A stretch of DNA of 64,000 nucleotides from an uncultured candidatus Porisulfidus sp. GTDB taxonomy: Bacteria > Pseudomonadota > Gammaproteobacteria > Poriferisulfidales > Oxydemutatoraceae. A model generated the notes under the pieces. It did not search any database, had not been told where the DNA came from, and saw only the letters and a program-made list of their open reading frames with translations. Location: assembly GCA_965215125.1 (NCBI GenBank), contig OZ244052.1, positions 1,242,468 through 1,306,467 on the forward strand. Direction: 5' to 3'. Each line of letters begins with the position of its first letter. The first letter of the stretch is position 1. The translations under genes and the position numbers were made by a program. This document shows, in pieces, positions 34,610 through 62,800 of the stretch.

Positions 34610-36160
34610 ATGACTCATTCCCGACAAAACATGACTGATATATTTTCAGGCTATATTGAAGCAATTGAAAATTGCAAGGTCTACGATGTGGCCTCCGTTA
34701 CGGCACTGCAAGCTGCCCCCTATTTATCAAATCGCTTCGGGCAAAACATACTTTTGAAACGAGAAGACCAACAGTCGGTTTTCTCGTTTAAACTGCGGGG
34801 CGCATACAACAAAATTGCTCAATTATCGGATAAAGAAAAACAGGCGGGTATCGTCGCCGCTTCGGCGGGTAACCATGCGCAGGGAGTTGCGTTGGCAATC
34901 CAAAGATTGGGTGTCAAAGCAATTATCGTTATGCCGTTGACTACGCCGATGATTAAAGTCAAGGCGGTTGCACTGTTCAACCCGGATATTGTGCGGCACG
35001 GAGACACCTACGACGAGGCATATGCATATGCAGTCAAACTCGCCGCAAAACACGGCTACACTTTCGTACATCCGTACGACGACCCGCAAGTAATCGCCGG
35101 GCAGGGCAGCATCGGCATGGAGATACATCGGCAATGCAAAGAGTCCATAGACGCTGTCTTTGTTCCGGTCGGCGGCGGCGGGTTGATTGCCGGGGTCTCG
35201 CTGTATTTGAAAAAATTCCGCCCGCAAACAAAAATCATCGGGGTTGAGCCCGATGATGCGGCAACCTTATATACTGCCCTGCAGCATGGTAAGGCTGTCA
35301 CGCTGGATAAAGTCGGATTATTCTCCGACGGTACTGCGGTACGATGCATCGGCGAAGAGACTTTCAGAATCTCAAAAGCGTTGGTGGACGAAGTTATATT
35401 GGTCAACACCGATCAGATATGTGCTGCGATCAAAGATAATTTTGACGAAAATCGCACCTTGCTGGAGCCCGCCGGTGCGTTATCGATAGCAGGCTTAAAA
35501 CGCTATATCGCTAAGTACCGATGTCTCAATGAAACTTTGGTCGCTATCGCTTCGGGAGCGAATATCAATTTTGACCGCCTGAAGCATGTTGTCGAACGTT
35601 ATGAGATTGGCGAGGGCACCGAATCCTTGTTGTCAGTGACAATACCGGAGCGACCGGGCAGTTTTGTCGACTTTTGTCGGACTATAGGCAAGCGAAAACT
35701 TACCGAGTTTAATTATCGTTATTCCGACAATGCCGAAGCCCGAGTATTTGTCGGCTTAGAGTTTGAGAATCTCAAGCGCGACAAACCCGAGACCATTGCC
35801 TCATTGCGGCGCAAAGGCTATGAAGTCGTCGATCTCTCGGATAACGAAATGGCAAAACTACATATACGACACATGGTCGGCGGGCATCTGCAAGATAAGC
35901 AAGAAAACGAGCAATTATGTCGTTTTCAATTCCCGGAAAGACCGGGTGCGTTGCTGGAATTTTTGGAGTATTTTGCCACCCAAGACCTGAATATCAGCCT
36001 ATTCCATTTTTCCAGCCACGGTTCGGAATATGGACGCATACTGGTCGGTGTGCAAGTACCGTCCAATAAAATAGATCACTTCAAAAAAGCGATGCGGGAG
36101 TCTCGTTACCAATATCAGGACGAGTCGGATAATCCCGCGTATCAACTATTTTTACGCTAG
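34610..36160 (+). CDS. ilvA: Biosynthetic threonine dehydratase (two C-terminal ACT-like domains)
   Basis: KREDQQSVFSFKLRGAYN (PLP Lys), SAGNHAQGVA and VPVGGGGLIAG motifs. C-terminal regulatory repeats end in NPAYQLFL. Start at 34610 or 34631. Confidence 0.93.
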   Translation: MTHSRQNMTDIFSGYIEAIENCKVYDVASVTALQAAPYLSNRFGQNILLKREDQQSVFSFKLRGAYNKIAQLSDKEKQAGIVAASAGNHAQGVALAIQRLGVKAIIVMPLTTPMIKVKAVALFNPDIVRHGDTYDEAYAYAVKLAAKHGYTFVHPYDDPQVIAGQGSIGMEIHRQCKESIDAVFVPVGGGGLIAGVSLYLKKFRPQTKIIGVEPDDAATLYTALQHGKAVTLDKVGLFSDGTAVRCIGEETFRISKALVDEVILVNTDQICAAIKDNFDENRTLLEPAGALSIAGLKRYIAKYRCLNETLVAIASGANINFDRLKHVVERYEIGEGTESLLSVTIPERPGSFVDFCRTIGKRKLTEFNYRYSDNAEARVFVGLEFENLKRDKPETIASLRRKGYEVVDLSDNEMAKLHIRHMVGGHLQDKQENEQLCRFQFPERPGALLEFLEYFATQDLNISLFHFSSHGSEYGRILVGVQVPSNKIDHFKKAMRESRYQYQDESDNPAYQLFLR

Positions 36161-36444
36161 CTTTTTGCAGTTGCCAAACCGGATATCGCTTTTTTGACCG
36201 AATAGATTAAAAAGATTGCAATCATGACCAGCAATGCCCCGGTGAAAAAGCTAAGTGCGTATAAAGAGATGACGCCACCGATAGCGGCTAATAATATAAC
36301 TGTGTTTATGGTGCCCAATAGTCCTTGGACGAAGTTTCTTTGCATTTTATCTATTAGATTATTAAAAAATAGAAATACGAACCACATAATTATTATCAGC
36401 ACACTACATACTAAAAAATAAAACAAATGCATTAAAAAATCCAT
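36157..36444 (-). CDS. Small membrane protein, unknown function
   Basis: 95 aa with three hydrophobic segments. AAGGAGA Shine-Dalgarno 7 nt upstream of the ATG. Overlaps the ilvA stop by 4 nt. Confidence 0.45.
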   Translation of the reverse strand: MDFLMHLFYFLVCSVLIIIMWFVFLFFNNLIDKMQRNFVQGLLGTINTVILLAAIGGVISLYALSFFTGALLVMIAIFLIYSVKKAISGLATAKS

Positions 36445-36514
36445 AATCGATCTCCTTGAGTTAAACGGTATTTTCGATGTTCCATAATATCATAATTAGT
36501 ATCGTTCACTCATT

Positions 36515-37773
36515 GGGAATTATATAGATAACTTGACAGATTTATTAGACCGCCTTGCTACCCTATCTTTTTGACGCTTCACAGACCAGCCAACGCTGCA
36601 ATCTCCACGCCCGGTTGCGGTATTCCCGACCGCCAAAATGTTTAATGCAGCATTGACATCTGCATTGTCCTCGTGTCCGCAGTGCCGACACTTGAATATC
36701 GCTTGTGTTTTGCGGTTCGCTTTATCTACGCTTCTGCACTTGTTGCAGGTTTGACTTGTATATGCTGGATTGACCTTTCCTACATATGCTTTGTAGCTTA
36801 AGCATTGCTCCAGTTTATACCAGCCACTCTTTAGTATCTCTCTGTTCAAACCTGACTTCGCTCCCACATTCTTGCCCGGGCTGTCTATCGTCCCCTTCGC
36901 CGACTTCGTCATGCCTGCTGTATTCAGTCCTTCCATATAGACGATGTCGTATTTGTCCGCTATTAGCTTGCTGGTTTTATGACACCAATTCGCCCTCGTA
37001 AATCGCTCCGCTTGATACGCTTTCTGTAATTTATACTTCGCTAGCTTACGCCTGTTGCTTCCCTTAACCCGTCTAACAACCATTCGCTGATAACGCTTGC
37101 GTCTTGCTTCCTTACGCTGTAAGTCGGGTAGGTAATACATGGTCCCGTCCGACAATGCTATCTGTCCCACATTCCTATCCAAACCCACTTCCTTTAGCAT
37201 CTGCGATTTGTCCGCTAGCTCCACTTCATAGCAAATATATGCATACCAATTACCACATTCATACTTGACTTGACCCGATACAAACTTCTCACCTTTATAC
37301 CTATCACCACCGGCAAACTTCATCCAGCCTACCTTCTGTATATACAAGTGACAACCCGATAGTTTTGCCGATTGATAATTGATTGGGAATGACGGGCTAT
37401 GCGTATATTTGCCGTGAAACTTCGGCAATCCGTTGTTGCTCTTGAAAAATCCTTTGTATGCTATCTCTATCGGTTGTAATGATGATTTCACGATATAAGC
37501 GGAATAACCTTGCAACCACTTGTCGCAATGCTTTCGCAATGTCGTAAATTGCTTGCCTAGGGTGAAAAAGCTAAACCGGCTCTCGCCATAATACTCGTAT
37601 TCATCCTTTAACTCAGCTACAAAGTGATTCCAAACATAACGACACGCTCCGGCAGTTCCGTGTAATTGCCGATGCTTTTCATAGGTCGCTGGATACAAGC
37701 GATATCTGATTGTTCTATGAGTTTTCATCGATGTAATTTAACATTTCTTTGTCAAGTTATCTATATAATTCCC
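36515..37773 (-). mobile_element. TnpB-only element copy 1 (1259 bp) with 24/25-bp terminal inverted repeats and 8-bp target duplication
   Basis: IR GGGAATTATATAGATAACTTGACA(G) at 36515-36539. Its reverse complement is at 37750-37773. Direct repeat CACTCATT at 36507-36514 and 37774-37781. Confidence 0.85.
36520..37728 (-). CDS. tnpB: TnpB (OrfB_IS605-type RuvC/zinc-ribbon RNA-guided nuclease family)
   Basis: RTIRYRLYP start, RuvC-I GLDRNVG, RuvC-II DIVYMEGLN, zinc ribbon CNKC...CRHC, RuvC-III DNADVNAALNI. The last four codons and the stop lie inside the terminal IR. Confidence 0.9.
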   Translation of the reverse strand: MKTHRTIRYRLYPATYEKHRQLHGTAGACRYVWNHFVAELKDEYEYYGESRFSFFTLGKQFTTLRKHCDKWLQGYSAYIVKSSLQPIEIAYKGFFKSNNGLPKFHGKYTHSPSFPINYQSAKLSGCHLYIQKVGWMKFAGGDRYKGEKFVSGQVKYECGNWYAYICYEVELADKSQMLKEVGLDRNVGQIALSDGTMYYLPDLQRKEARRKRYQRMVVRRVKGSNRRKLAKYKLQKAYQAERFTRANWCHKTSKLIADKYDIVYMEGLNTAGMTKSAKGTIDSPGKNVGAKSGLNREILKSGWYKLEQCLSYKAYVGKVNPAYTSQTCNKCRSVDKANRKTQAIFKCRHCGHEDNADVNAALNILAVGNTATGRGDCSVGWSVKRQKDRVARRSNKSVKLSI

Positions 37774-37841
37774 CACTCATTTATCCGAGAATTATATACT
37801 TTAAGTATGTAAATCATGTTTTACCGATTTCCACTTTGTTT

Positions 37842-38375
37842 TTAGTTCCTTTTAAGCCACTTACATGCTAATCCATAAGTTGTAACTTGAGGCTCAACAT
37901 TCTTCTTAGGGTGGATATTAGATTTTAGTATCTCAAATACAGGTTCGCTATCTAACCTAAACTTGATTTGTTTATAATGGCTTTTGCTATCATGTCTATC
38001 CTCAATCTGCCCTATTTGCTTATTATGCAATAATGAAAAAAACACTACTTTTTGATCATCCATTTGTTTACTGTGCCTGGCTTTAGAATTGCGGAGCGAG
38101 ACATTAGTGCATAAAGTGTCAACTACTTTATTCTTGTGGAATACATGAAAATGTTTTTTCTCTTTCAAGTCTTTTGCGAGACCAGGATATATACTAAGAT
38201 AATCGGCATTCCCACCATCAAATAATGCCTTAGCAAGTAATGATGCTAACATTTTTGGTTTGTTTAACTCTTCTAAGAGTCTTCTCATGTGTGGCTGAAG
38301 TCGTAGCTTTGCAGCTGTTTTATTAGAAAGATATTCATCATAAGTTGTTGGGTATGCATCAAGACAATCAATCAT
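37842..38375 (-). CDS. Hypothetical protein; candidate C-terminal part or second subunit of a restriction endonuclease
   Basis: 177 aa with no recognised motif. Sits 17 nt downstream of the 80-aa ORF, in a different frame, in the methyltransferase operon. Confidence 0.4.
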   Translation of the reverse strand: MIDCLDAYPTTYDEYLSNKTAAKLRLQPHMRRLLEELNKPKMLASLLAKALFDGGNADYLSIYPGLAKDLKEKKHFHVFHKNKVVDTLCTNVSLRNSKARHSKQMDDQKVVFFSLLHNKQIGQIEDRHDSKSHYKQIKFRLDSEPVFEILKSNIHPKKNVEPQVTTYGLACKWLKRN

Positions 38376-38392
38376 TATGTTTGCAATGTTCC

Positions 38393-38635
38393 CTAATCCT
38401 TGAAAGATAGTGTTAGTTTTAAGGCGATTTTACTGTATAAGAAAATCTGCCACCGCTCCCCAGCTTTTACTGAGTGATACCTGTCTTGTTCATCCGCAAC
38501 ATCTTTTTTGTCTGTATGATGCCCTCTTTGTACATGACCACCAATTAGTTCAGCAAAATGCTCTTCATTTGCATGCCCAGCTCTTTTTACCATGCTTGCG
38601 TGTTCGCTGGTCATAGCTCTTCGTTTGGGCATCAT
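38393..38635 (-). CDS. Hypothetical protein with PD-(D/E)xK-like motif; candidate nuclease (N-terminal part or small subunit)
   Basis: 80 aa. ...TDKKDVADEQDRYHSVKAGERW resembles D-x(n)-(D/E/S)-x-K nuclease cores. Its start overlaps the methyltransferase stop by 4 nt. Confidence 0.4.
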   Translation of the reverse strand: MMPKRRAMTSEHASMVKRAGHANEEHFAELIGGHVQRGHHTDKKDVADEQDRYHSVKAGERWQIFLYSKIALKLTLSFKD

Positions 38636-39558
38636 CCCAACACCAAGAGTTCATGTGAATGTTTTATATGATTGTTTGTTCCGTTCTCTATTCTATTCTT
38701 ACCTATCCTTGTTTCACCTTGCCCTAGGGTGTATTGCCACTTTACTTCTATAATATTAAAATCAGAATACCAGTCTCTTATCGTCTCACAATCATTATAT
38801 GAAAGAATAAACCCGCCCTCATGCTGATATAATAAATCGCGCAACAGTTCATGATTGAATTGGTTATGGTGAACAGGGAAGTTTCTTTGTGGATATATTC
38901 CCTTAAACATCTTGCTATTACCATTCAAATAATAAGGGGGGTCACAATACATGAACGAATCTATGTGTTGAGGTATAGTTCTACTAAAGTTCCCCGAACA
39001 TACCGATAGATTGGGACAAGTGAAGTTTCTAACTTTATCAAGCAACCTAATATATCTGCTCTCTTCTTCGTATATTTTTGACATCCAACCTAAAAAACCA
39101 GGTCCGTAAGATAGATTATGATTAAACCAATAATGGGCAGCTAAAGATACTTTGTCCTCTATTTTTTGTGACTTGTCCCAATGCTTACGAAGTCTGTTCT
39201 TTACTTGTGAATATTTACTCTTTGTTGGTTTCCATTTGCACAAGCGGCTATATAGTTCTAATGGTTTCTTTAGTTGTATTTGCCAGTAATTTGTTAATAT
39301 ATTGAAAACATCATAACCTTTGACTTTTAACCCTAGCTCTTTGGCGCAAGCAATTTCAACACTTCCACCACCAAAAAACGGAGATACTAATGAAGTAATA
39401 TCAGGTGGCAGATGTTCTATTATGTGTCCAACAGCAAGGGTTTTACCACCAGCATATCGCAATGGTAGCCCATTATACCTAGAATACTTATATTTGCCTT
39501 TTCCATTAAGCCTATTTAATAAAAGGCTTTGCCTAGTGTCCGGCTTTAATGCAAACAT
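38632..39558 (-). CDS. DNA N6-adenine methyltransferase, D12 (Dam) class
   Basis: LRYAGGKTLAV (SAM/FxGxG-equivalent region of Dam family), PFFGGGSVEI, and catalytic YCDPPYY. Confidence 0.85.
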   Translation of the reverse strand: MFALKPDTRQSLLLNRLNGKGKYKYSRYNGLPLRYAGGKTLAVGHIIEHLPPDITSLVSPFFGGGSVEIACAKELGLKVKGYDVFNILTNYWQIQLKKPLELYSRLCKWKPTKSKYSQVKNRLRKHWDKSQKIEDKVSLAAHYWFNHNLSYGPGFLGWMSKIYEEESRYIRLLDKVRNFTCPNLSVCSGNFSRTIPQHIDSFMYCDPPYYLNGNSKMFKGIYPQRNFPVHHNQFNHELLRDLLYQHEGGFILSYNDCETIRDWYSDFNIIEVKWQYTLGQGETRIGKNRIENGTNNHIKHSHELLVLG

Positions 39559-39587
39559 GGTGACTACTTTATCAGTTTTTTATAAAG

Positions 39588-39875
39588 TTAATCTCTTGCC
39601 TCACGGACACGCCGAAGCATAAACCAAAACGACTTCTGAGTAATACCTAGTTCCTTTGATAGCTGTAAAGACGATATACCCTTTCGCGCGGTCACTACCA
39701 AATAAATCGCTATATCCCAGCATTGCAAAGGTAGTAGCGATCTGTTCATTTCGCTATCGGTTTTTATCGTAAATGCTCTGCGACAACGATTGCAGTAATG
39801 ATTGTACTTTCTAGGTTTGTATATTTTAACCTTCTCTATTTTTTTACATTTAGGACAGATAGGTTTGCTTCCCAA
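39588..39875 (-). pseudogene. N-terminal fragment (95 aa) of an IS1595-family transposase; DDE domain missing
   Basis: Zinc ribbon CPKC...CNRC followed by an HTH (ISSLQLSKELGITQKSFWFMLRRVREA), typical of the IS1595/ISXO2-like N-terminus. The ORF stops where the catalytic domain should begin. Confidence 0.65.
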
Positions 39876-40092
39876 ATCACACCTTCAATCTACCTAACTG
39901 CTTTTGTTTCAGTAGAAAATATTTTAAGTAATTCAGCTATGCTGATTGTTTGAGTCGTGTGTTTCAATTTCATCTCCATATTTTGCATACTAAAATATCA
40001 AAAATGGAAATAGTGTCAAGTGTCTTACAGATTTTATTTTCAATATTTTTAGTAGGATTTTTACATACTTAAGTATATGATTCTATTTATTT

Positions 40093-48724: not shown

Positions 48725-48741
48725 CCGTATTCTTAGCTAAT

Positions 48742-50010
48742 GGGAATTATATAGGTAACTTGACAGACTTTTTAGCCTGCCTTGCCCACCCTATCTTTTT
48801 GACGCTTCATTGACCGACTTGTGTTGCCACTGTCGCCGTCTCCACACCCGGTTGCAGTACTCCCAGCCGCCAAAACGTTTAATGCAGCATTTACATCCGC
48901 ATTGTCCTCGTGTCCACAATACCGACACTTGAAAATTGATCGGGTCTTACGGCTTGCTTTATTTACGCTTCCGCATTGATTACAGGTTTGACTCGTATAG
49001 GCCGGATTGACCTTTTCTATACATGCCTTGTAGCTTAAGCATTGCTCCAGTTTATACCAGCCACTCTTTAGTATCTCCCTGTTCAAACCTGATTTTGCCC
49101 TCACATTCTTACCCGGGTTGTCTATCGTCCCCTTCGCCGACTTCGTCATGCCGGTTGTATTCAATCCTTCCATATACACAATGTCGTATTGGTCTGCTAT
49201 TAACCGGCTGGTTTGATGACACCAATTCGCCCTCGCAAACCGCTCCGCTTGATACGCTTTCCGTAGCCTATGTTTTGCTAGTTTGCGCCTGTTGCTCCCC
49301 TTCACCCGTCTAGCAACCATTCGCTGATAACGCCTACGCCTTGCCTCCTTACGCTTTAAGTCGGGCAGGTGATACATCGTTCCGTCCGACAATGCCACCT
49401 GACCACAATTCCTATCTAGTCCTACTGCTGCCACTGGATGCGACCTGCTTGGCACTTCCACTTCATAGGTGATATATGCATACCATTTACCACATTCATA
49501 CTTGACTTGACCGGATACAAACTTCTCACCTTTATACCTATCGCCACCGGCAAACTTCATCCAGCCTAGCTTCTGTATATACAAGTGACAACCCGATATC
49601 TTTGCCGATTGATAATTGATCGGGAATGACGGGCTATGCGTATATTTGCCGTGAAACTTCGGCAATACGTTGTTGCCCTTGAAAAATCCTTTGTATGCTA
49701 TCTCTATCGGTTGTAATGATGATTTGACTATATAAGTGGAATAACCTTGCAACCACTGGTCGCAATACTTTCTTAATGTCGTAAATTGCTTGCCTAGGGT
49801 GAAATAGCTAAACCGGCTCTCGCCGTAATACTCGTATTCGTCCTTCAGCTTGGCTACAAAGTGATTCCAGACATAGCGGCATGCGCCTGCTGTGCCGTGT
49901 AATTGCCGGTGTTTTTTCTGTGTCGCCGGATATAAATGGTATCTAATTGTTCTATGGGTTTGCATTGATATAATTTAACATTTCTTTGTCAAGTTAACTA
50001 TATAATTCCC
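48742..50010 (-). mobile_element. TnpB-only element copy 2 (1269 bp) with terminal inverted repeats and 7/8-matching 8-bp target duplication
   Basis: IR GGGAATTATATAGGTAACTTGACAG at 48742-48766. Its inverted copy is at 49987-50010 (one internal mismatch). Flanks are TAGCTAAT (48734-48741) and TCGCTAAT (50011-50018). Confidence 0.85.
48772..49965 (-). CDS. tnpB: TnpB (second, diverged copy; catalytic motifs intact)
   Basis: About 85 percent identical by eye to the copy at 36520-37728. GLDRNCG, DIVYMEGLN, CNQC...CRYC and DNADVNAALNV are conserved. The C-terminal tail differs (ends ...DRVGKAG). Confidence 0.9.
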   Translation of the reverse strand: MQTHRTIRYHLYPATQKKHRQLHGTAGACRYVWNHFVAKLKDEYEYYGESRFSYFTLGKQFTTLRKYCDQWLQGYSTYIVKSSLQPIEIAYKGFFKGNNVLPKFHGKYTHSPSFPINYQSAKISGCHLYIQKLGWMKFAGGDRYKGEKFVSGQVKYECGKWYAYITYEVEVPSRSHPVAAVGLDRNCGQVALSDGTMYHLPDLKRKEARRRRYQRMVARRVKGSNRRKLAKHRLRKAYQAERFARANWCHQTSRLIADQYDIVYMEGLNTTGMTKSAKGTIDNPGKNVRAKSGLNREILKSGWYKLEQCLSYKACIEKVNPAYTSQTCNQCGSVNKASRKTRSIFKCRYCGHEDNADVNAALNVLAAGSTATGCGDGDSGNTSRSMKRQKDRVGKAG

Positions 50011-50045
50011 TCGCTAATTTTCATGATTTATTATATTGTAACGTC

Positions 50046-51122: not shown

Positions 51123-53861
51123 ATGTTAGAACACTACAACGGATGTTATTATAAGTCTTACATCAAAAAAATGTTGTTGGGGGGAGCAGGTGCACAGTTT
51201 CACTCCCACGATAAGCAATTTTACCCGCTTGTTTTGATCTTTTTGAGTTTATGGACTAGCCCGGTTTACTCGCAATGCGAGGTTGTGAACAACAATCGGG
51301 GTAAAATTGTAGAATGTGATATTTCGTATTCAATGCATCCAGCTGATCCTTCGGAGTGGGAAGGAGAGGCCAGAGATGCTGTGAACGAAGAGATTAGACA
51401 ATTTGCGGATTCTTGGTGTCAATCCTCTGTGGCTAATTCAAGGATACGCAGGGTTTCTATTTATACGGATGGACGTCCTGCCGATGTCACTTACCGTAAT
51501 TCTGCAGGAATATCAAGTGCCTCTCTAGGAGGGTTTACTTATGGAACATCTATCACACAACACATTTATGATAATGTTGGTGGTCTGGTTATGGCCCACG
51601 AACTAGGCCATAGTCTATGGTCTCTATACGATGAATATACTTTTGCCTTGGCAGCTTCATGCCAAATAACCGTAACAATGCATGATCAACTGCCTACTCT
51701 AATGGGGGTAATAAACGAAGATTTTCGTAGGTTTAGTCATCCCGGAGATTATCCGAAGGAAGGAAATATCATCACTGTGCAATCAGATTGTTACGGGAAA
51801 TCGGCATGGGAAGTCCTTATACAACCCGCCTACCTTGATCGTATTAGGGCAGCCCAACTGAACGCACGTTTCCCGAGACAAGACTATTTATTCCAAGCAG
51901 GTGTCGGTTTGCCGGATTTTGATCGGCTATTCGACTCTTATACCTGTACGCCGCCGACAATCGATTGGGTTTCAAGTGCCGGCACCGTTGTTATGATGAT
52001 GGATCATTCTGCGAGTATGGGGGATAATCAACGGTTGGCAGTGGTAAAACAAGCTACCAAAGATGTAGTAGAGGTACTCTATGCAGAGGCTCCTCCGATA
52101 GAACTGGGAATTATTGGTTTTGACGACATTGCCAGAACCGAGGTGATGCCGAGCCGATTGGATGCTATAGAAAACCTGAGGATGATCCAGTCGGTGATTG
52201 ATTCATTGGTTGCCGACGGTGGCACCGACTATGAAGCGGCTTTGGCGGAGGCACAGACACTTTTTGCGAATGTAGCGAGCGACGGTCACCACGCCCTGGT
52301 CATCATTTCCGACGGCGAGACCGGGCAGTCGGACTACGGGTATTTTAAGGACAACGGCATATCGGTCTACACGGTGGAACTGGACACCGACGGTCGGGTG
52401 CTTTTGCAGGATGCCACGCTAAAGACGAGAAACCGATTCAAGATGGAAGTAGACTCACAAAGATTGCCTAGCTTTTTGCCTAGTGTGTTCAGAAACGAGT
52501 CGTTAATCCGCAATGCCCAGTTGGCAAAATCGGTATCGTTGCATAACCGCATCATTGAGGATGTGGTGACGACCGATACGGTCATATCGGAGATGACCGA
52601 GTCGGCAAGTTTTATTTTGAGGTGGGATGATGATGCTTACTTTGACAGCTTTACGCTACAAGACCCGACCGGTGTGATCATAGATCAAGCATACGCCGAC
52701 AACTTAGCAACCGACGGGGTGCGTTATTTAGAAAGCGATACACAAGCAATCTATTATATCGGTTCCCCGACACCGGGTATATGGGAAGTGCGCATTACCG
52801 GTACCGGCAACTTTGCGTATGAGGCGGCGGTGCGTAGCGATATCGTTGTCGGCATCAATGCCGGTGCGGAAATTATCGTTCAGGAGGTTCCGAGCGAGGT
52901 GGTCACCTATCCCGAGCCTATCCCGATTTTGGTCAATGTCGCCGGTGGGTTGCCGATAACCCGTGCCGATGTGAAGGCGGATATTACGATGCCGGATGAT
53001 TCTACGATGTCTGTTGTATTGACCGACGACGGCAATGCGCCGGATGAGACTGCAGCCGACGGTTTGTATTCGGCGATGTTGGCGGATTATTCTCAAGACG
53101 GGATATGCGAGATTAAGGTGACCGTAAGCAACCTTGACGGTCATGCATTGTTGGACGATACGAGTTTGTTATATCATCCGGTGCTGTCACCGGGCGACTC
53201 GCCGATTTTCAATGTACCGACGGTGCTGCAACAAGCCCCGATATTTGAGCGGGTTGTTTATGACCAAGTGGATGTGGTGAATACCGAAGAGAAGCTGATG
53301 CCACCGCCGTTGTCGGTTCAACCGACGACGATTACGAGCATACCGTATTTGGATAAAAGTTCAATCGAGCGTGCCGGCCAGGTGAATTGGTATGTGTTTA
53401 ATACGATGCGCGAGGGTGAAAGCTATTATCTACAGACGAGTAATTTAATGGGCTACGATAATACCCGAATGGCGACGGATTTGAGCTTATACGAGCCGGA
53501 CGGGACGAGTTTAATAGAGCGAAGTGTGCGTTATCGTGGCAGCGATGTATCGAGCATTGAATGGATTGCCCCTAGAGCGGGTGATTATTTGGCATCGGTT
53601 GCCCATGCCGAGGGGGGTAGAGGGTATTATGAGTTCACGGTCAGCGGTGAGAACCTTTTGTCGGAGAGTGAGATGAGAGAAGCGGAGAATCGTAGTAGCA
53701 ACGAGAACCTTTTGTCGGAGAGTGAGATGAGAGAAGCGGAGAATCGTAGTAGCAGTAGCAGTGGTGGTTTTGTGGGTTATCCGTTGTTGCTACTCTTATT
53801 GCTTGCGATAGTTTTGTTATACCGCATGCACACGGCTTTCTCAAATCGTCCGACACCATAA
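51123..53861 (+). CDS. Secreted multidomain protein: HExxH metallopeptidase (M64-like, tentative) - vWA - PPC domain - GlyGly-CTERM-like sorting tail
   Basis: VMAHELGHSLWSLYDEY; vWA MIDAS VVMMMDHSASMG...DGGTDYEAAL...VIISDGE; PPC-like GQVNWYVFNTMREGESYYLQ...GYYEFTVS. C-terminus SSSSGGFVGYPLLLLLLLAIVLLYR (GG, then TM, then basic). Signal-like FYPLVLIFLSLWTSPVYSQ. The start may be 51171. Confidence 0.75.
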   Translation: MLEHYNGCYYKSYIKKMLLGGAGAQFHSHDKQFYPLVLIFLSLWTSPVYSQCEVVNNNRGKIVECDISYSMHPADPSEWEGEARDAVNEEIRQFADSWCQSSVANSRIRRVSIYTDGRPADVTYRNSAGISSASLGGFTYGTSITQHIYDNVGGLVMAHELGHSLWSLYDEYTFALAASCQITVTMHDQLPTLMGVINEDFRRFSHPGDYPKEGNIITVQSDCYGKSAWEVLIQPAYLDRIRAAQLNARFPRQDYLFQAGVGLPDFDRLFDSYTCTPPTIDWVSSAGTVVMMMDHSASMGDNQRLAVVKQATKDVVEVLYAEAPPIELGIIGFDDIARTEVMPSRLDAIENLRMIQSVIDSLVADGGTDYEAALAEAQTLFANVASDGHHALVIISDGETGQSDYGYFKDNGISVYTVELDTDGRVLLQDATLKTRNRFKMEVDSQRLPSFLPSVFRNESLIRNAQLAKSVSLHNRIIEDVVTTDTVISEMTESASFILRWDDDAYFDSFTLQDPTGVIIDQAYADNLATDGVRYLESDTQAIYYIGSPTPGIWEVRITGTGNFAYEAAVRSDIVVGINAGAEIIVQEVPSEVVTYPEPIPILVNVAGGLPITRADVKADITMPDDSTMSVVLTDDGNAPDETAADGLYSAMLADYSQDGICEIKVTVSNLDGHALLDDTSLLYHPVLSPGDSPIFNVPTVLQQAPIFERVVYDQVDVVNTEEKLMPPPLSVQPTTITSIPYLDKSSIERAGQVNWYVFNTMREGESYYLQTSNLMGYDNTRMATDLSLYEPDGTSLIERSVRYRGSDVSSIEWIAPRAGDYLASVAHAEGGRGYYEFTVSGENLLSESEMREAENRSSNENLLSESEMREAENRSSSSSGGFVGYPLLLLLLLAIVLLYRMHTAFSNRPTP
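53649..53756 (+). repeat. Perfect-looking 2 x 54-nt tandem repeat (ENLLSESEMREAENRSS[N/S]) in the linker before the sorting tail
   Basis: GAGAACCTTTTGTCGGAGAGTGAGATGAGAGAAGCGGAGAATCGTAGTAGCA.. occurs twice in tandem. The decayed gene copy at 63.7 kb carries a single unit. Confidence 0.9.
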
Positions 53862-53885
53862 ACAAGCACGGCAGCCATTAAAAAA

Positions 53886-56800
53886 TTGGCACACAAAATA
53901 TTTATTCTATTGGCATTTTTTCTTTGTGCTATGCCATGGCAGTTTGCCGCGGCACAGACATCGCCTTTATCTCCTTGTTCGTCGACCGATATAGACAAGG
54001 ATAACGATGGGTTAATAGATATTTGCGATTTGGAGGGATTGAATGTCATTCGTTATCAACTGGACGGCACCGGTTATAAAGCCAACGAGTTGGCAGAGAA
54101 GATCACCGCAGGTTGTCCCGGTAATCGTTGTAGGGGTTATGAGCTGATGAGAGATTTAGATTTTCTAGATGCTAACAGTTATCGCAGTGGAGTAATTCGG
54201 AGGGATTGGGTGGTAGGTTCGGGTTGGCTACCGATCGGGAGTGTTGTAGCACCTTTCGGGAGTGGGAATGTGATCCAGGATAGTATGTTCGAAGGTAATG
54301 GTTATGCTATCCGAAATTTGATGATCAATAGGCCTAATAGCGATAATGTCGGTCTATTTGCTGTTAATGGTTTGGGGGGGGGAATTAAGGATATTCGGCT
54401 ACTGGATGTGAATATTCAGGGGAAATCAAGAGTAGGGGCTTTGGTTGCTCGTAACGAGCCCGGAAAAATTAGAAATAGCTATGTTAGCGGCAGTATAAGA
54501 GGTGTTTCTCGGATAGGTGCACTGGTTGGTTATAATAGTTTTACATCTCTTGCATCTCCCGTTCTTGAGAACAGTTCTGCCACCGGTGTTGTGATAGGAA
54601 CAGGCGATAAAGTGGGTGGTTTAGTAGGTAGCACTTATTCCACAATTAAAAATAGTCAAGCATTCAACACCGTATCAGGAGTTGCGGAAGTAGGTGGGTT
54701 AGTCGGAACAACTGCCGAAACTAGCCTCAGAACCGGTCAAATCATTAATAGTCGTGCAGTCGGGAATGTTACCGGAGTTAATAGCGTAGGTGGACTAATA
54801 GGTAGGGCTGGGACAGCATTCGGTTCTAATCCAGATAGCCCGTGGAGAATTATTAACAGTCATGCCACCGGGACGGTGGAAGGGCAAATCTGGGTAGGTG
54901 GATTAGTTGGTAATGCCGATATTATACACATTGAGAATAGTTCTGCTCATGGTGAAGTGATCGCAACAGGCTCGGCACAGTGGGCAGGTGGCCTAGTAGG
55001 TCTTATCAATAAAGAAGGCGGAAGGATTGATAAAAGCCATGCAACCGGAAGTGTGACAGGAATAAGGAGAGTGGGCGGTTTTTTGGGTGGGGCTACTGGA
55101 GTCCGTTTTGATGACAGCTATGCGACCGGTCGTGTGCAAGGAGGTCAGGGAAGCAGAGATGTTGGTGGTTTTACCGGAATTAGTTCAGGTGGTAGTATTA
55201 CCAATAGCTATGCAACCGGTATGGTGCAAGTACGCGGAAAAAGCGAAGACATTGGCGGTTTTATCGGGGAAAATGTGGGAACACATATTATGAATAGTTA
55301 TGCTATCGGTAATGTACGAGGAGGTCAAGGAAGTTCAGGAGTAGGCGGCCTTATCGGGAGTACTGAGAGGGTAAATATTATCAATGGCTATGCGACCGGT
55401 CGTGTGCAAGGAGGTCAGGGAAGCAGAGATGTTGGTGGTTTTATCGGAATTAGTTCGGGTGGTATTATTAGAAATAGTCATGCTACCGGCGATGTGGAGG
55501 GAGGCGGTAGAGTCGGTGGTTTTGTCGGACAAAGTGAGGGAACACGCATTATGAATAGTTATGCGGCTAGCCATGTGCGAGGAGACGGAACCGTTGGCGG
55601 TTTTATCGGAGATAGTTCAGCTGTTATTACCAATAGTTATGCGACCGGTCATGTGGAGGGAGGCGGTAGAGTCGGTGGTTTTGTCGGATTTCATGACAAT
55701 GGTAGTATTACAAATAGCTATGCTATCGGCAATGTGGCATCGGGGCGCGATGCTGGCGGTTTTGTCGGATTTCATAACAATGGTAGTATTACAAATAGCT
55801 ATGCTATCGGCAATGTGAAAGCGGAACGCGCTAGCGGTTTTAACGCAGGTGGTTCAGGTTTTATTACAAATAGCTATTGGGATAGGCAGACCAGCGGTAG
55901 AACGAGTAGTGTCGGTGGCAGAGGCAAGACGACTTCGGAGTTGCAATTGCCCACGACATCGACCGGGATATATAGTAGCTGGGATGACGATGTATGGGAT
56001 TTCGGTACATCCGAACAATACCCTGCTCTCAAGTATAGTGATGGCACATTGCAGCCGAACCAGCGTTTCGGTTTGCTCCGAGTAGGTTTGCCGAGTGGCT
56101 TGATATTGTCGCCGTCTTTTAAGTCCGAAGTATTAAGTTATCGCGTTATAGGCGAGACCGGCATAAGGCAAATCCGTCTGACCCCAATTGCTGCTAACTT
56201 TGATGCCGATATTATTATTGAAAGTAGTGGAGGTTTCAGAGAACGGATGCCGAGTGGTACTACGAGTTCCGAGATTTCATTGAACACCGCCGGTGTTACC
56301 ACGGCTACCGTTGAAGTGCGAACACCCTATGATGTACCGATCCGATATACACTTGCCTTTAACGATAGAACTTTTAACGAGGGTGAGCGCATTATATTAG
56401 AGAGAATAACCGCTCGAGATGTAGATGACAGTGTATTGCGTTATAAATGGACACAAACATCGGGAATGCTTCGTCTACTACCGGTGGAAGGAATTAGTCA
56501 AGCGGTTTTGGATGTACCGATACCCGAGCTTTTCCTGAGCGAAACCGAAGATGATCGTGAGATTACGATTAGATTGGAAATCAACGATGGCACGAAGACT
56601 GAGACTAAAGACCTAAGATTGACAATCGCTAAGGCGGATAATGGTACCGCAGTACAGTCGGATCCTATTATTACACGATCGGATAGAACATTAACTGCCC
56701 CCGAAGTAGACTTGTCAACAGACCCGGACGGTTCCGGCACGATAAATAGTTATTTGTGGCAACGGCGAGCGAATATAAACGCCGATTGGATAGACATAGA

Positions 56801-59800
56801 AGGTGTTACCGGCAATATGTATCGTGTTCCCGAAGATACGGCCTACGCCGAGTATCGCGTACAGTATGCTTATACCGACGGGCAAGGCTATATACAAGCA
56901 CTTATATCCGAAGTATTTATTTTTATATCAGATGTTGATATAGACAACAACGGCTTGATAGAAATAAATGATTTGGAAGGTTTGGATGCCATTCGCTATC
57001 AACCGGACGGCACCGGTTATAGAGCCAACAAGACGGCGGATAAGATTACCACAGGTTGTCCCGATGCGGGTTGCGAGGGCTACGAACTAACACGGAGTTT
57101 AGATTTTGAGCAAGGCACAAGTTATCGCAATGGAATTATCGGCACGGCTTGGACGACGGGTTCGGGTTGGCTACCGATCGGTACTTCGGAAGCACCTTTT
57201 GATGCCACATTCAATGCAAGTAGTCATACAATTTCTAATTTGCGAATAGATAGGAGTAATGCTGCCAGAGGTGTTGGTTTATTCGGTATCACGGCAAGTA
57301 ATGCCGAGATAGCAAATGTCGGCTTATTAGATGTGGATATTTCGGGTAATCAAGGTGTAGGTGGATTAGTCGGGTACAAACAGGGCGGTTCTATCATCGG
57401 TAGTTATGTAACAGGACAAGTGAAAGGGAGTGGCACGTACGATGTGGGAGGATTAGTCGGTTGGCATCGTGGTGGGACGATTTCCGATAGTTATTCAAGC
57501 AGTACGGTAGTGGGATTTCGTCGCAATGTCGGTGGTTTGGTGGGTGATAACGACGGTGGCACAATCAGCGATAGCTATGCAAAAGGGAGTGTGAACGGTG
57601 AGGAAGAAGTCGTCGGTGGTCTGGTTGGCAGGAACAGCAATACGGGGATTATCATGCGTAGCAGAGCGGAAGTCAAGGTGGACGGAGGCGGTAGAGTCGG
57701 TGGTTTGGTTGGGGAAAATAGCGGGATTATTACAAATAGTTATACCCGAGAGCGCATCATAGGCATGGCGGATGTGGGGGGGATGGTTGGTTGGAATTTG
57801 GGCGATATTACGAATAGCTATGCTCTCGGATTTGTAAAAGGCGATAACGGAGTCGGAGGCTTTGTCGGTAATAATCTTCAGGGTACGATTACGAATAGTT
57901 ATGCTAGAGGTAATGTGGACGGTGCGAATCGCTATGTCGGGGGCTTTGTCGGATGGAGTGCAAGAGGAGCCATTATAAACAGCTATGCTCAAGGTAATGT
58001 GAGAGGCAAAGACGGGGTCGGAGGATTAGTCGGGGTTAATCTAGGTCTAGCTAACAACTCGGGTGTCGGCAGAGTTACTAAAAGCTATGCGACAGGTCGT
58101 GTGAGAGGAGATACCAATACCGGCGGACTAATAGGAGAGAATAGGGACGGTCATGTTGAAAAAAGTTATTGGAATAAAACCAATAACCCTACTGTAGTAA
58201 GTGCCGGTGGCATTTCTAGGACCAGCGTAGAGATGCAAACACCTACGCAGCCGGGCAATAATGCGACAGAGATTTATTACGATTGGAGTCCTGCCGATTG
58301 GGATTTTAGCGCAACCGATCAATACCCGACGCTCAAAAACGCAGTGGGACCCGATCAAAGTCAACCGGCATGTGGCACTGCCGAAGATCCGGATTGCGGC
58401 ACACCGTTAACCGAGCAACTTCAAATCGTACGCACATCACCTATAGAACCGATATCGGATATCAGATTATTGACGGGATTCGTGAAAGAATTGAATGTCG
58501 TATTAAGTGTCGGTATTGGCGACGGTCCGACCCAATTCAAGACCAGTGTTAAGTCTAGCAACCGCAACATTGCAACGGCGAGCATAGCCGAAGGCGGCGG
58601 TTTAATTCGTACACTTCGTGTTTTAACCGGTTCGGATATCGGTAGGTCGGAGATTATGGTGTCGGTGAACGACGGTGAAGGTTTAGCCGATTCTGTAAGT
58701 AGTACGGAATTTGTGGTGACCACAGAAACGAACGATGCCCCTAAAATTACAATCACATCACTGTCCGAATTAGTACCGGTGGATGACAGGATAGTGATCT
58801 CGGTCGAAGTGATGGATGATAATTTTGATGCCGGCGATAGAGTGCTCTTAACATCATCCGTGGTGCCGGAAGTGTTGGTGGAGCCGAGACAAATTGTCGG
58901 AATAAGTAGTAATAAGACGGAGCGCATTACGCTGAAGGGTGTTAGAGGGGGTACTGCGATGGTTGGGTTTACTGTAATCGATAGCAAAGGGGCGTCCGAT
59001 AGTGAAACCGTATCGGTGCGTGTTGATGCGAAGCCGACCGGTAGTGTGCGCATAAGTTTCACTAATAAATGGTTATTGGGTTCGACTTCAACGATAGAGG
59101 ATGCGGGCGGTATAGCCGAGGTGAATTATCGGTGGTATAGAAACGGCGTTGCTATAGCGAATGCAACCAGCCGAACCTATATGATAGCGGATAATAAAGC
59201 GGGACGCGCTACCGGCACAAGCTATCGCTTAGAACTGACGGTTATAGACAGTATAGGGCAATCGGTAGTTATTCAATCCAACTCGCTTAGAGTTGCGAAT
59301 GAACGGCCGGTTATCGCAAGCACTACTGCAACGGAGATGATCGATGAAGGCGATACGCAAGATATTAGCGTCAGTGCGAGCGATCCGAACTATGACGACT
59401 TAATGTATCGCTGGAGCGAGGACTCCGGGGTATTGATTAATGATAATCGCAACCCGGCAACACTCGGTATTCCACCCGACTATATAAAAGATGCCGCATC
59501 CTCGCAGACAACAGTTAATTTAGAGGTGAGAGTAAGCGACGGAGATCTCGCTACGACCGGGACGGTATCGGTGGTGGTCAACAAGCAGAACAATGGTTCT
59601 GCAACTTTAGGAAATCTCATAGAAATAGGAAGCAGAGAGACGACATTAACGGCGACGGTATTATCCGACGATCCCGACAATGGAGTTAGTGGGGCTGTAG
59701 GATATCAATGGCAAGTCTGTGAAGGGAATGAAGGGAGTTGTCCATCGGAGAGTAATTGGATGAATATTAACGACGCCGGCGGAACACAATACATCATATC

Positions 59801-62800
59801 GGATTCTGGTATTTTGTTGGAAGGTGGCAGTACATTTCCCTTAGTACGGAATGGCAGTCTATTTCGCGCAGCAGGGACTTATACCGATGGTCAAGGTTAT
59901 CGCGAAGTAGTGTATTCGCAAGGCTATAGTTATTCGGGGCGTGTCAATGCGTCGCCGACGATTAGCGGCCTACCTGCGCAACGGATCAGGCTGTTTGAAG
60001 GCACAGAGACCGAGTTTGAGGTGGAACTAAACGATCCCGATGCCGACGATATTTCCGGCGATCTAGTATTCGGTGTTCAATCCGACACAACCGAAGTTGC
60101 AAGGGTTGATGTAGAAGGAGCGGGTACGACCCGTACGATTAAGATTACCGCTATCGGTGTCGGTATGGCGACAATCACTGCGACGGTCAACGATGGTAGA
60201 GGTGTGTCGAACTCCGAAGTCTCGGAACGGTTTGAGGTGGAGGTTGAAGGGAATGAAGCCCCGATGCTTGAGATTTTTGCCGCACCCAATCGAACGATAG
60301 GGCTGGGCAACACCACGCAAGTAATGGTTTTGGTGTCGGATGCCGATTTTGATGTGGGCGATCGTGTTGTTCTGGAGGCGGTGTCGTCAAGCCGATCTAT
60401 CGTATCGGTGAGACCGACGAGAACCGACCCTATAGCGACCGATATGAGCGTACCCTTTACACTAAGCGGTATTAAAGCAGGAGTAGCGACTATTGTATTC
60501 ACTGCAACGGATAGGAGCGTGTCAACCGATAGTGTATCTTTGCTGATATCCGTTGATGCGAAGCCGACCGGTGGTGTGCGCATAGAACCGGATAGCAGTA
60601 ATCAATGGTTACTGCGTGTGGCTTCAACGGTAGAGGATGCGAACGGCATTGTTGAGGTAAATTATCAATGGTATAGAGAGGGTGTTGCTATAGCGAGTGC
60701 TACCAACCAAACCTATATGATACCGGACAATAGAGATGGACGTGCCGCAGGCACAAGCTATAGTTTAGAAATGACGGTTATGGATAGTCTAGGGCAATCG
60801 GTAGTTATTCAATCGAACTTCTATAGAGTTGCAAATGAACAACCTGTTATTACCGTTCCTGTAGCAGAGATCAGTGAGGGTGACAGGCAGGATATTAGCG
60901 TGACAGCGGGTGATCCGAACTATGACGACTTAGTGTATCGCTGGATTGGGGACTCCGGGGTATTAAGCAATGAGAATAGCAACCCGGCGAGATTAAGCAT
61001 TCCACCCTACTATATAAGAGATGCCGTATCCACCCAAACAACACTCAATCTAGAGGTGGAAGTAAACGACGGGGAGCTCTTTACGACAAGCACGGTATCG
61101 GTCGTGGTGAACAAGAAAAATAATGGTTCTGCGAGATTAGGAGCCTCCCTAGACGAAATAAATGGAGATACGGCAATCATGGCAACCGTATTCTTAAATG
61201 ATCCTGACGGAGGCACCGGTGGAGCTGTGGCGTATCAATGGCAGGTATGTGAAGGGAACGAATTCTTTTGTCCGTCGGTGAATAATTGGCTGGATATTGA
61301 TGGAGCTAACGAAGCACAGTACATCATATCGGGTTCTAGTATTTTGGTGGAAGGTGGCAATAGATTTCAGATCGTAAAAGATATCAGTGTATTTCGTCCA
61401 GAAGTGACTTATACCGATGGTCAAGGTTATCGCGAAACGATTGACGCGCCGGGGTATACTCATTCACAGCGTGTGAATAATTCGCCGACGATTAGCGGTC
61501 TACCTGCGCAACGGATTAGGCTGTTGGAAGGGACAGAGACCAAGTTTGAGGTGAAACTGAACGATCCCGATGCCGACGATATTTCTAGCAATCTAGTATT
61601 CGGTGTTCAATCCGACACAACCGAAGTTGCAAGGGTTGATGCAGTAGGAGAGGGTACGACCCGCACGATTAAGATTACCGCTATGAGTGCCGGTATTACG
61701 ACAGTCACTGCGATGGTGAACGACCGCAGAGGTGTGTCGAACTCCGAAGTCTCGGAACGGTTTGAGGTGGAAGTCGAAGAGAACGAAGCCCCGATGTTTG
61801 AGGTTATTGCCGCACCGCAGCCGGCGATAAGGTTGGGTAACACCACACAGGTCGTGGTGTTGGTGTCGGACACTAATTTTGATGTCGGCGATCGTGTCGT
61901 TTTGGCGGCGAGGTCATCAAGCCGGTCTATCGTATCGGTGATACCGATGCAAACCGATGCGATAACGACTAATGCGAGTATAACCTTCACACTGACCGGT
62001 GTTACAGTAGGAACAGCCACTGTCGTATTCACCGCAATGGATAGCAGAGGATCAACCGGCAATATATCTTTGTTAGTGCGTGTTGGTGCGCATCCGACCA
62101 GTAGTGTGCGCATAGAACCGGATAGTAGCAATAAATGGTTACTGCGTGCGACCTCAACGATAGAGGATGCGGACGATATCGTTGGGGTGAATTATCGGTG
62201 GTATAGAAATGGCGTTGCTATAACGGATGCTACCAGCCGAACCTATATGATAGCGAATAATAGAGCGGGACGTGCGACCGGCACAAGTTATAGACTAGAC
62301 CTAATAATCATGGATAATCTAGGACAATCGGTGGTTACTCAATCCAACTCCTATATCGTTGCAAATGAACGACCGGTTATCACAAGCACTACTGCAACGG
62401 AGGTGATCGGTGAAGGCGATACGCAAAATATTAGCGTGAGTGCGAGTGATGCAAACTATGACGACTTAATGTATCGCTGGAGCGAGGATTCCGGGGTATT
62501 TAGCAATGACAATAGCAACCCGGCAACACTCGACATTCCACCCGACTATATAAAAGATGCTGCATCCACCCGAACGACGCTCAATTTGGAGGTAGAAGTG
62601 AGCGACGGGGAGCTCGCTACGACAAGTGCGGTATTGGTAGAAGTGAGGAAGAAAAATAATGGTTCTGCAACGATACGAATCTCCGTAGAAATAGTAAGCG
62701 GAGGGACGACATTAACGGCGATGATATTATCCGACGATCCCGACGGAGGCACTAGTGGGACTGTGGTGTATCAATGGCAAGTCTGTGAAGGGAATGAAGG

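Follow-up and report, generated by a model that had tools for sequence, protein, structure and literature searches.

A tnpB gene as the sole cargo of non-autonomous IS1595-family elements with a predicted flank-guided omega-RNA

A 64,000-nucleotide stretch of contig OZ244052.1 from an uncultured Candidatus Porisulfidus (hereafter the window) carries two copies of a compact transposable element in which tnpB, the gene of an RNA-guided nuclease, is the only long open reading frame (ORF). Copy 1 is a 1.26-kb unit with tnpB as the sole gene between terminal inverted repeats. On the 3′ side of tnpB the repeat arm reads GGGAATTATATAGATAACTTGACA (36515-36538), and its reverse complement forms the arm on the 5′ side (37750-37773); the arms begin GGGAATTAT, i.e. 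with a GG start. The original prediction for this locus, made from the letters alone, had described a 25-bp repeat with an exact inverted copy; the copy is exact over 24 nt, whereas the 25th base does not pair. Allowing up to three mismatches, a search for the repeat found four sites in the window compared with none in 100 shuffles. Immediately outside both arms stands the direct repeat CACTCATT, present at 36507-36514 (downstream in the tnpB sense) and 37774-37781 (upstream) and identical at 8/8 positions, in agreement with the perfect 8-bp repeat reported earlier. The tnpB gene itself (36520-37728, minus strand, 402 aa) terminates within the 3′-side arm, its stop codon lying 5 nt from the element tip.

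The product of copy 1 tnpB matches the Pfam families HTH_OrfB_IS605, OrfB_IS605 and Cas12f1-like_TNB and the NCBIfam model guided_TnpB (197 bits). It aligns over its full length to the ISDra2 TnpB structures 8bf8, 8exa and 8h1j (E = 7e-25), with homology that includes the N-terminal HTH and WED-REC regions. The RuvC triad (D184, E266 and D357) and the CxxC...CxxC zinc finger are intact; 13 relatives show no change at D184, at E266 or at any of the four zinc-finger cysteines and almost none at D357, and the catalytic and zinc-binding residues are kept down to 53% identity. Domain matches, residue conservation and the ORF call thus agree with what had been noted before, namely that the sole ORF is a 402-aa TnpB with intact RuvC and zinc-binding residues that ends inside the repeat. 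Pairwise dN/dS (the ratio of non-synonymous to synonymous substitution rates) between copies is 0.09-0.16, with dS up to ~1.6 and paralogues up to 25% diverged in nucleotides; copy 1 against its paralogues gives 0.11-0.16. These ratios indicate that tnpB is under purifying selection and that TnpB is being maintained.

The second copy occupies 48742-50010 and is ~86% identical to copy 1 over the tnpB codons. Its tnpB (48772-49965, minus strand, 397 aa) encodes a protein with 84% amino-acid identity to that of copy 1 and with the catalytic motifs present. The repeat arm on the 3′ side of the gene (48742-48765) has one mismatch to copy 1, and the arm on the 5′ side (49987-50010) also has one mismatch. 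Because similarity between the two copies ends exactly at the GGG and CCC tips, the element boundaries are fixed independently of the repeats. Outside the tips of copy 2 stand TAGCTAAT (48734-48741) and TCGCTAAT (50011-50018), which agree at 7/8 positions.

Copy 2 lies in the spacer between the FxsA and CutA genes. In OZ244779.1 (L105) and in one other assembly (L104) the same spacer contains no element and a single TAGCTAAT; judged by sequence comparison, it is the unoccupied site of copy 2, and its single TAGCTAAT shows that insertion duplicated 8 bp. The same picture would result if the element had been lost precisely. For copy 1, a look-up via the neighbouring 95-aa ORF found no empty site. 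The sister genome OZ244779.1 is occupied at that position (L006) by an element with the same duplication and a TnpB 99% identical to that of copy 1, and this occupied orthologue identifies OZ244779.1 as the closest relative of the window genome. Beside copy 2, four of the ~9 nt at 48725-48733 differ between the window and L105/L104, directly after the duplication on the side of the predicted guide; this stretch is also the cutA leader, and the other flank differs at just 2/44 nt. The divergence could reflect escape from targeting, adaptation of the leader or chance.

A 23-nt core of the repeat was searched against one genome per species, which returned 19 loci, all in metagenome-assembled genomes (MAGs). 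Nine of the 19 are on the Candidatus Oxydemutatoraceae chromosome OZ244779.1, this family being gammaproteobacterial. The others come from MAGs with the labels Ca. Porisulfidus, Burkholderiales, Thalassobaculaceae, Pseudomonadales, Latescibacterota, Bryobacterales and Ca. Palauibacter (a member of Gemmatimonadota), and the 24-bp ends span bins of several phyla. At five loci (L012, L013, L002, L007 and L019) the ends enclose, in place of tnpB, an IS1595-family transposase gene whose product has the Pfam domains DDE_Tnp_IS1595 and Zn_ribbon_IS1595. L012 (3474-6462) is a 2989-bp element flanked by the perfect 8-bp duplication ATTCATAA, in which a 313-aa ORF matches DDE_Tnp_IS1595 at 135 bits together with the IS1595 zinc ribbon. 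L013 (1680-2955) and L002 are transposase-bearing elements of 1276 bp each; L013 encodes an intact 306-aa transposase, and one of its arms is 24/24 identical to the window repeat. L002 shares a Porisulfidus chromosome, OZ241323.1, with a TnpB element (L009). Two full-length IS1595 transposases, P0125 and P0244, are encoded on the 2.22-Mb contig from which the window is taken, and a cluster member of this type in another assembly (L023) has ends identical to the window repeat at 19/24 positions and no clean duplication.

Duplications of 8 bp matching at 7/8 or 8/8 positions flank 20 related elements, 18 of which contain tnpB and two of which are short derivatives of such elements. The same ends also bound gene-less derivatives of 92-298 bp, found in Thalassobaculaceae, Bryobacterales and Oxydemutatoraceae bins. 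Two of these, L001 (3185-3276, duplication 8/8) and L005 (5896-6035, duplication 7/8), are internal deletions of the TnpB element. Beyond the set of 20, L008 (7367-7537) and L016 (1809-2106) are unrelated short elements that each have an 8/8 duplication, and L004 (4851-5074) has no recognisable duplication.

Members of the IS1595 family are defined by GG-start repeats, 8-bp duplications and a transposase with a DDE_Tnp_IS1595 domain, usually with a zinc ribbon (PMC8101967). The window element is like this family and its eukaryotic relatives, Merlin, in its GG-start repeats and the 8 bp duplicated on insertion, and a transposase with zinc ribbon and DDE_Tnp_IS1595 domain stands between identical ends elsewhere. 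It differs in having no transposase gene: since its only ORF is tnpB, it is not an autonomous IS1595 member. Ends shared with IS1595 transposase genes, the 8-bp duplications and the empty site together identify it as a non-autonomous IS1595-family derivative, assigned at family level only, with tnpB as sole cargo in the place of the transposase gene. Its tip, GGGAATTAT, is compatible with ggnnatTAT, the end consensus given for the ISNwi1 group of IS1595 in the original prediction, which makes that group a candidate assignment only. Most likely, tnpB is moved by a borrowed transposase. The original prediction had already cast tnpB as a passenger in a non-autonomous DDE element and had looked ahead to copies with a DDE transposase between identical repeats, 8-bp duplications at other copies and empty sites in relatives. 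The five transposase-bearing loci, the short derivatives, the 20 flanked elements and the unoccupied site of copy 2 bear this out.

A number of further features were recorded at these loci. L012 also carries extra unannotated ORFs. The transposases of L012, L013 and L019 (from 4884) are just 40-60% mutually identical, yet their 24-bp ends are almost identical and their bins belong to different phyla, a pattern that reflects either unusually strong conservation of the ends or their recent exchange. In L023 a 15-nt motif, ATTAGTTGACAAAC, occurs twice at one end (2388-2450) and may be a doubled transposase-binding site. One Pseudomonadales contig contains two loci, L019 (5960-6628) and L015 (791-1471), each with a single repeat arm and with similar ORFs of 222 and 226 aa; the ORF of this type at L019 adjoins the transposase gene. 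Such an ORF may be a passenger, or may belong to a larger composite element. At L017 (534-1358) a TnpB element is interrupted by an IS3-like ORF, at L002 (3202-4260) the IS1595 copy abuts an ORF that, judged by eye only, resembles an rve-type integrase, and the TnpB element at L108 (~640-655) was inserted next to a further repeat tip, TATATAATTCCC. Nested or adjacent insertions such as these may explain some missing duplications.

The element also has features in common with the IS1341 group of IS200/IS605: tnpB is the only gene, an omega-RNA with a guide-adjacent pseudoknot would lie over its 3′ end, and the transposase would act in trans. It might accordingly be an ordinary tnpB-only element of that type, moved by the Y1 transposase TnpA and with incidental repeats; its protein belongs to the general TnpB family, and an annotated relative at ~35% identity adjoins a Y1 tnpA gene. 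IS200/IS605 elements, however, have subterminal hairpins, neither inverted repeats nor a duplication, and insert on the 3′ side of a constant motif of 4-5 nt, which also serves as the transposon-adjacent motif (TAM); IS607 elements likewise have neither inverted repeats nor duplications (Kojima 2026 review). The window element lacks the defining features of the IS1341 group. It has a perfect 24-bp inverted repeat, 8-bp duplications that differ in sequence from site to site and no fixed flanking motif, and its empty site contains the 8 bp once. Identical ends flank DDE transposase genes; inspection of copy 1 for repeats and hairpins found no hairpin near its 5′ end, and no tnpA gene adjoins either copy in the window. 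The empty-site comparison and the shared ends refute an ordinary IS1341-type element, to which we assign next to no probability. A larger IS605 or IS607 unit was excluded by the boundaries defined from the two copies and by the empty site.

On the minus strand, a predicted omega-RNA scaffold (36515-36696) overlaps the 3′ end of tnpB and runs to the transposon tip. Its single-sequence fold has a z score of -3.1, and no Rfam match was obtained in 36000-38300 even at E up to 1. RNAalifold, run on the last 230 nt of 16 elements, predicted several helices that overlap the gene end and show compensatory changes: columns 120/132 hold CG in nine elements and GC in six, columns 121/131 UG in eight and GC in seven, and columns 149/184 GC in nine and AU in seven. 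One predicted helix uses the conserved motif GAAGCGTCAA, and the 3′ arm of the last predicted hairpin is the inner part of the inverted repeat.

The RuvC-III codons are followed by a hairpin whose 7-nt loop is the complement of the final 5-7 nt of the transposon. For copy 1, GGGAAU in the loop (36622-36627, minus strand) is predicted to pair with the tip AUUCCC (36515-36520), 107 nt downstream, as a pseudoknot. Three features fall within the 3′-side repeat arm: the 3′ strand of this predicted pseudoknot, the stop codon and the 3′ arm of the final predicted RNA hairpin. Loop and tip vary together between subfamilies: GGGAAU and AUUCCC in the window family (the loop of copy 2 being GGGAGU, 48859-48864), GGAAUU and AAUUCC in L033, GGGAC and GUCCC in L031 and L067, GGGACUG and CAGUCCC in L056, GGGGU and GCCCC in L036, GGCGCU and AGCGCC in L100 and L077, and GGUAGUG and CACUACC in L030 and L032, two elements with a differently built end that were used for the pseudoknot comparison only. 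In a mini-alignment of 11 subfamilies, pairing is seen in 94% of the pseudoknot cells, and both partners vary in three of the six pairs. The pseudoknot score was reached in 0/500 shuffles, and partner columns slid out of register paired at no more than 58%.

This arrangement parallels that of ISDra2, whose omega-RNA forms a pseudoknot between nucleotides -5 to -3 and -105 to -103, directly before the guide; in ISXfa1 nucleotide -3 pairs with -130. Given the homologous layout, the scaffold would end at the tip and the guide would be copied from the flank. The guide of copy 1 is thus most likely AATGAGTGAACGATAC..., beginning with the duplicated 8 bp: its putative template, AATGAGTGAACGATACTAAT (36495-36514, minus strand), consists of the duplication and 12 nt of flank, and CACTCATT read on the minus strand, AATGAGTG, supplies the first 8 nt. 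That a guide would begin with the duplicated 8 bp had been foreseen in the original prediction, and it gains in silico support from the loop-to-tip covariation and the ISDra2 layout. Alongside its RuvC triad, zinc finger and N-terminal homology to ISDra2 TnpB, the element has a predicted structured RNA overlapping the 3′ end of the gene and a predicted guide-abutting pseudoknot, both recognised by covariation only, in keeping with the OMEGA class of RNA-guided nucleases.

A different assignment would end the scaffold at the last hairpin (...CUGUC) and make the remaining ~20 nt, the repeat itself, the guide. TnpB would then cut its own or related IS1595 ends, resulting in RNA-guided excision or attack on competitors. 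The ~20-21 nt left unpaired between the last predicted hairpin and the tip do correspond to the length of a TnpB guide. Against this, the last 5-7 nt covary with the upstream loop in seven tip types, which places the tip within the scaffold as in ISDra2, and such a guide would target both ends of its own element. The last 20 nt of the repeat were rejected as a guide on the pseudoknot covariation, and we consider this assignment very improbable.

Flank composition was read in the tnpB direction at the upstream junction of the 20 elements with verified duplications. Position -2 was T in 12/20 and A in 6/20, and position -1 was A in 13/20 and G in 6/20. The first duplicated base was A in 15/20, compared with T in ~5/20 at the mirror position of the other end. 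A rule that every duplication starts with A, drawn from six copies, was discarded at n = 20, where the 15/20 amount to a bias only.

The host gene downstream of the element was co-oriented with tnpB in 9/9 loci with gene calls, and in ~9 of 12 further loci judged by a longest-ORF rule; the loci include both window copies, L020-L022 and L108-L111. The start codon of the downstream gene is often 0-30 nt from the element tip. Co-oriented neighbours include cutA (copy 2), hisI at L022, where the ATG is inside the duplication, and lysS at L111, where the element stands between a release-factor gene and lysS. A promoter scan found no sigma-70-like promoter inside copy 1, and the two terminator-like sites in the scan of copy 1 are both on the strand opposite tnpB. 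Apparently without its own promoter, the element is probably co-transcribed with the co-oriented downstream host gene. If so, read-through from the host operon would supply the guide, and the downstream gene would stay expressed.

These positions bear on whether an active TnpB might serve some purpose other than homing or retention, either interference against competing elements or plasmids bearing the flank sequence, or a host-linked role upstream of co-oriented genes. The strong co-orientation and the short distance between tip and start codon fit such a purpose, as does the fact that DDE cut-and-paste already leaves a double-strand break, so that restorative homing adds less than in IS605 (Kojima 2026 review). 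On the other side, the nuclease residues are intact, unlike those of TldR-type repressors, and the predicted guide differs with each insertion, which is a better fit to a locus-specific selfish role than to a host function. We regard a non-homing role as unlikely, but worth keeping in view.

In the mechanism that we favour, homing or retention guided by the flank, an IS1595-family transposase supplied in trans would bind the repeats and move the element, its staggered cut producing the 8-bp duplication. The last ~180 nt of the tnpB strand would fold into the omega-RNA, whose guide-adjacent pseudoknot would use the final 6 nt of the repeat, and read-through transcription would append a guide derived from the flank: the duplicated 8 bp followed by downstream DNA. 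Such a guide would match an unoccupied allele or a precisely excised donor site, both of which have the 8 bp once and then the same flank. An occupied site would be spared because the repeat tip ...TTCCC fills its TAM position. A cut in the empty allele would then lead to the element being recopied by homologous recombination, i.e. retention or homing as in IS605. Unlike Y1 TnpA, a DDE transposase would set no fixed motif, and a TAM would be present by chance or selection only; because the transposase guarantees no TAM, only some insertions would be protected. We infer the start of the guide, the TAM and homing from sequence.

At the other extreme, tnpB could be an inert passenger in a MITE-like derivative (MITE, miniature inverted-repeat transposable element) that arose by internal replacement in an IS1595 element, with neither TnpB nor its RNA aiding spread or retention. 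Short derivatives without tnpB do exist and have target duplications, no promoter was found inside the element, and DDE insertion guarantees no TAM. Four lines of evidence oppose this: the dN/dS of 0.09-0.16 between paralogues up to 25% diverged, the catalytic and zinc-binding residues conserved down to 53% identity, the covariation of RNA helices and pseudoknot, and the same packaging across TnpBs down to ~31-40% identity. An inert tnpB is therefore improbable.

Taken together, these results make it likely that each copy is a non-autonomous IS1595 element in which tnpB and a predicted omega-RNA replace the DDE transposase gene, moved in trans and guided by its flank in homing or retention. 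Several observations weigh against this model. There is no recognisable duplication at L009, L020 and L023 or at L002 and L013, the two 1276-bp transposase-bearing copies. The closest relative genome, OZ244779.1, yielded no copy in which exact ends enclose a transposase gene, and the resident transposase type, as in L023, has ends that match at just 19/24 positions; for these two reasons current mobility in the host can only be presumed. The pseudoknot mini-alignment was assembled by hand and anchored on the hairpin stems, and so is not fully unbiased; the distant L038 shows no clear match of loop to tip, and in L033 the pairing requires a one-nucleotide shift of register. The orientation-dependent flank bias is weak, with no fixed motif upstream that would define a TAM. 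This bias could reflect a short TAM, and could equally arise from insertion just upstream of co-oriented genes. Finally, eukaryotic Fanzor elements fold the duplicated bases into the scaffold and not into the guide (PMC10711439); the duplication might be folded likewise here, though a variable 8-mer cannot form a conserved scaffold pairing.

The same packaging extends well beyond the window family. Ends of this kind, with 8-bp duplications, also accompany TnpB relatives at 56-89% identity (L010, L018, L020-L029, L035 and L108-L111). At ~39-43% identity, elements with GGG- or GG-start ends that pair as inverted repeats were found (L031, L033, L034, L036, L056 and L067), and some members at 31-35% identity have paired ends likewise (L038, L077 and L100). 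All these elements are 1.15-1.56 kb long and contain tnpB alone; perfect 8-bp duplications flank L033 (CTTAGTCC), L056 (AAAGGGTT) and L100 (TAATTATA). Automated pairs of repeat plus duplication in L036, L040, L067, L098 and L102 were disregarded, their number being about that expected by chance. One annotated relative sampled from a cultured bacterium, a Methylophaga plasmid copy at ~35% identity, stands beside a Y1 tnpA gene as a canonical IS605 element, and no tnpA gene lies within 1.5 kb of an E. coli insQ copy of similar identity. The lineage looks old, diversified and derived from IS605-type TnpBs, and not like a one-off capture.

A broader interpretation is that a large TnpB lineage, of which we found no description, swapped its vehicle from IS605-type to IS1595-family DDE elements, tnpB and its omega-RNA replacing the transposase gene to yield a MITE armed with a guide RNA. 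The 3′ strand of the pseudoknot would have become the repeat tip, so that two TnpB codons, the scaffold of the RNA and the end bound by the transposase would have to co-evolve. Each insertion would write a guide that starts with its own duplication, and the element could thereby re-home to alleles that are empty or have undergone precise excision, with no need for the transposase to provide a TAM. We put this interpretation forward tentatively, giving it slightly less than an even chance.

The general arrangement of TnpB within DDE-type inverted ends is not unprecedented; it has been published and is rare in bacteria. Altae-Tran et al. 2023 (PNAS, PMC10691335) described six TnpB branches, DDE-1 to DDE-6, with DDE transposases and inverted ends in all, as well as solo TnpBs whose ends are nearly identical to those of transposase-bearing elements and for which mobilisation in trans was inferred. 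As in those branches, a prokaryotic TnpB here lies within inverted terminal repeats, with the 3′ end of tnpB no more than 250 bp from the transposon end, and the ends are shared with transposase-bearing elements as they are for the solo TnpBs. The named partners of DDE-1 to DDE-6 differ, being IS630, ISL2 and IS1031, and IS1595 is absent from the main text. The Kojima 2026 review gives the same three partner families, calls such associations rare and discusses the reasons. A second difference is that in window-type elements tnpB and a transposase gene were never seen in one element, and are alternative contents of the same ends. In our reading, a gene-neighbourhood survey could have scored this clade as unassociated, because the two genes are never neighbours.

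The closest eukaryotic comparison is with Fanzor. Yoon et al. 2023 (PMC10711439) described a Fanzor-only non-autonomous element, in a Spodoptera frugiperda ascovirus, with inverted repeats and target duplications that are both absorbed into the scaffold. Fanzor1 and Fanzor2* elements resemble the window element in having a TnpB-family nuclease as sole cargo with inverted repeats and duplications, and in the repeat forming part of the scaffold. They differ in being eukaryotic or viral, in short duplications predicted to lie within the scaffold and in Fanzor1 RNAs that have no pseudoknot. In the window element the 8-bp duplication is variable and a predicted canonical pseudoknot ends at the tip, and for these reasons the duplication most likely belongs to the guide.

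A literature search yielded no account in which an RNA-guided nuclease and its guide RNA are passengers of the IS1595 family, and a full-text search found no paper linking TnpB with IS1595 ends. What is new here is the transposon-family partner, IS1595, and the lineage defined in this work, within a known kind of arrangement, so that the novelty is moderate; two further points, the loop-tip coupling and the bias in orientation, appear to be new as far as checked. IS1595, the bacterial relative of eukaryotic Merlin, adds a DDE family to the few bacterial cases of TnpB outside IS605 and IS607, and provides, in bacteria, a close counterpart of the Fanzor-only elements that have inverted repeats and target duplications. 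It also offers a set of compact TnpBs with defined predicted scaffolds. Because the loop-tip covariation sets the expected start of the guide, guide and target can be written for each insertion. These elements are a clean natural setting in which to study the contribution of an RNA-guided nuclease to a cut-and-paste element that duplicates its target and supplies no TAM, a question left open in the Kojima 2026 review. After 2023 this is no conceptual surprise, yet the use of TnpB to a DDE element becomes directly testable.

Other features of the window lie close to the two copies. A degenerate IS1595-type element (37788-40084) begins 6 bp from the duplication of copy 1 and has the repeat-like arms AGAATTATATACTT and AAGTATATGATTCT. 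It holds, on the minus strand, a D12-class N6-adenine DNA methyltransferase gene (38632-39558), two ORFs without a Pfam match (37842-38375 and 38393-38635) and an N-terminal remnant of an IS1595 transposase (~39597-39857), and may be a decayed insertion sequence with a restriction-modification passenger. Downstream of copy 2, within 51123-63059, are two ORFs of exceptional length (912 aa and 3057 aa); the L105 orthologue of the 912-aa ORF has VWA domains.

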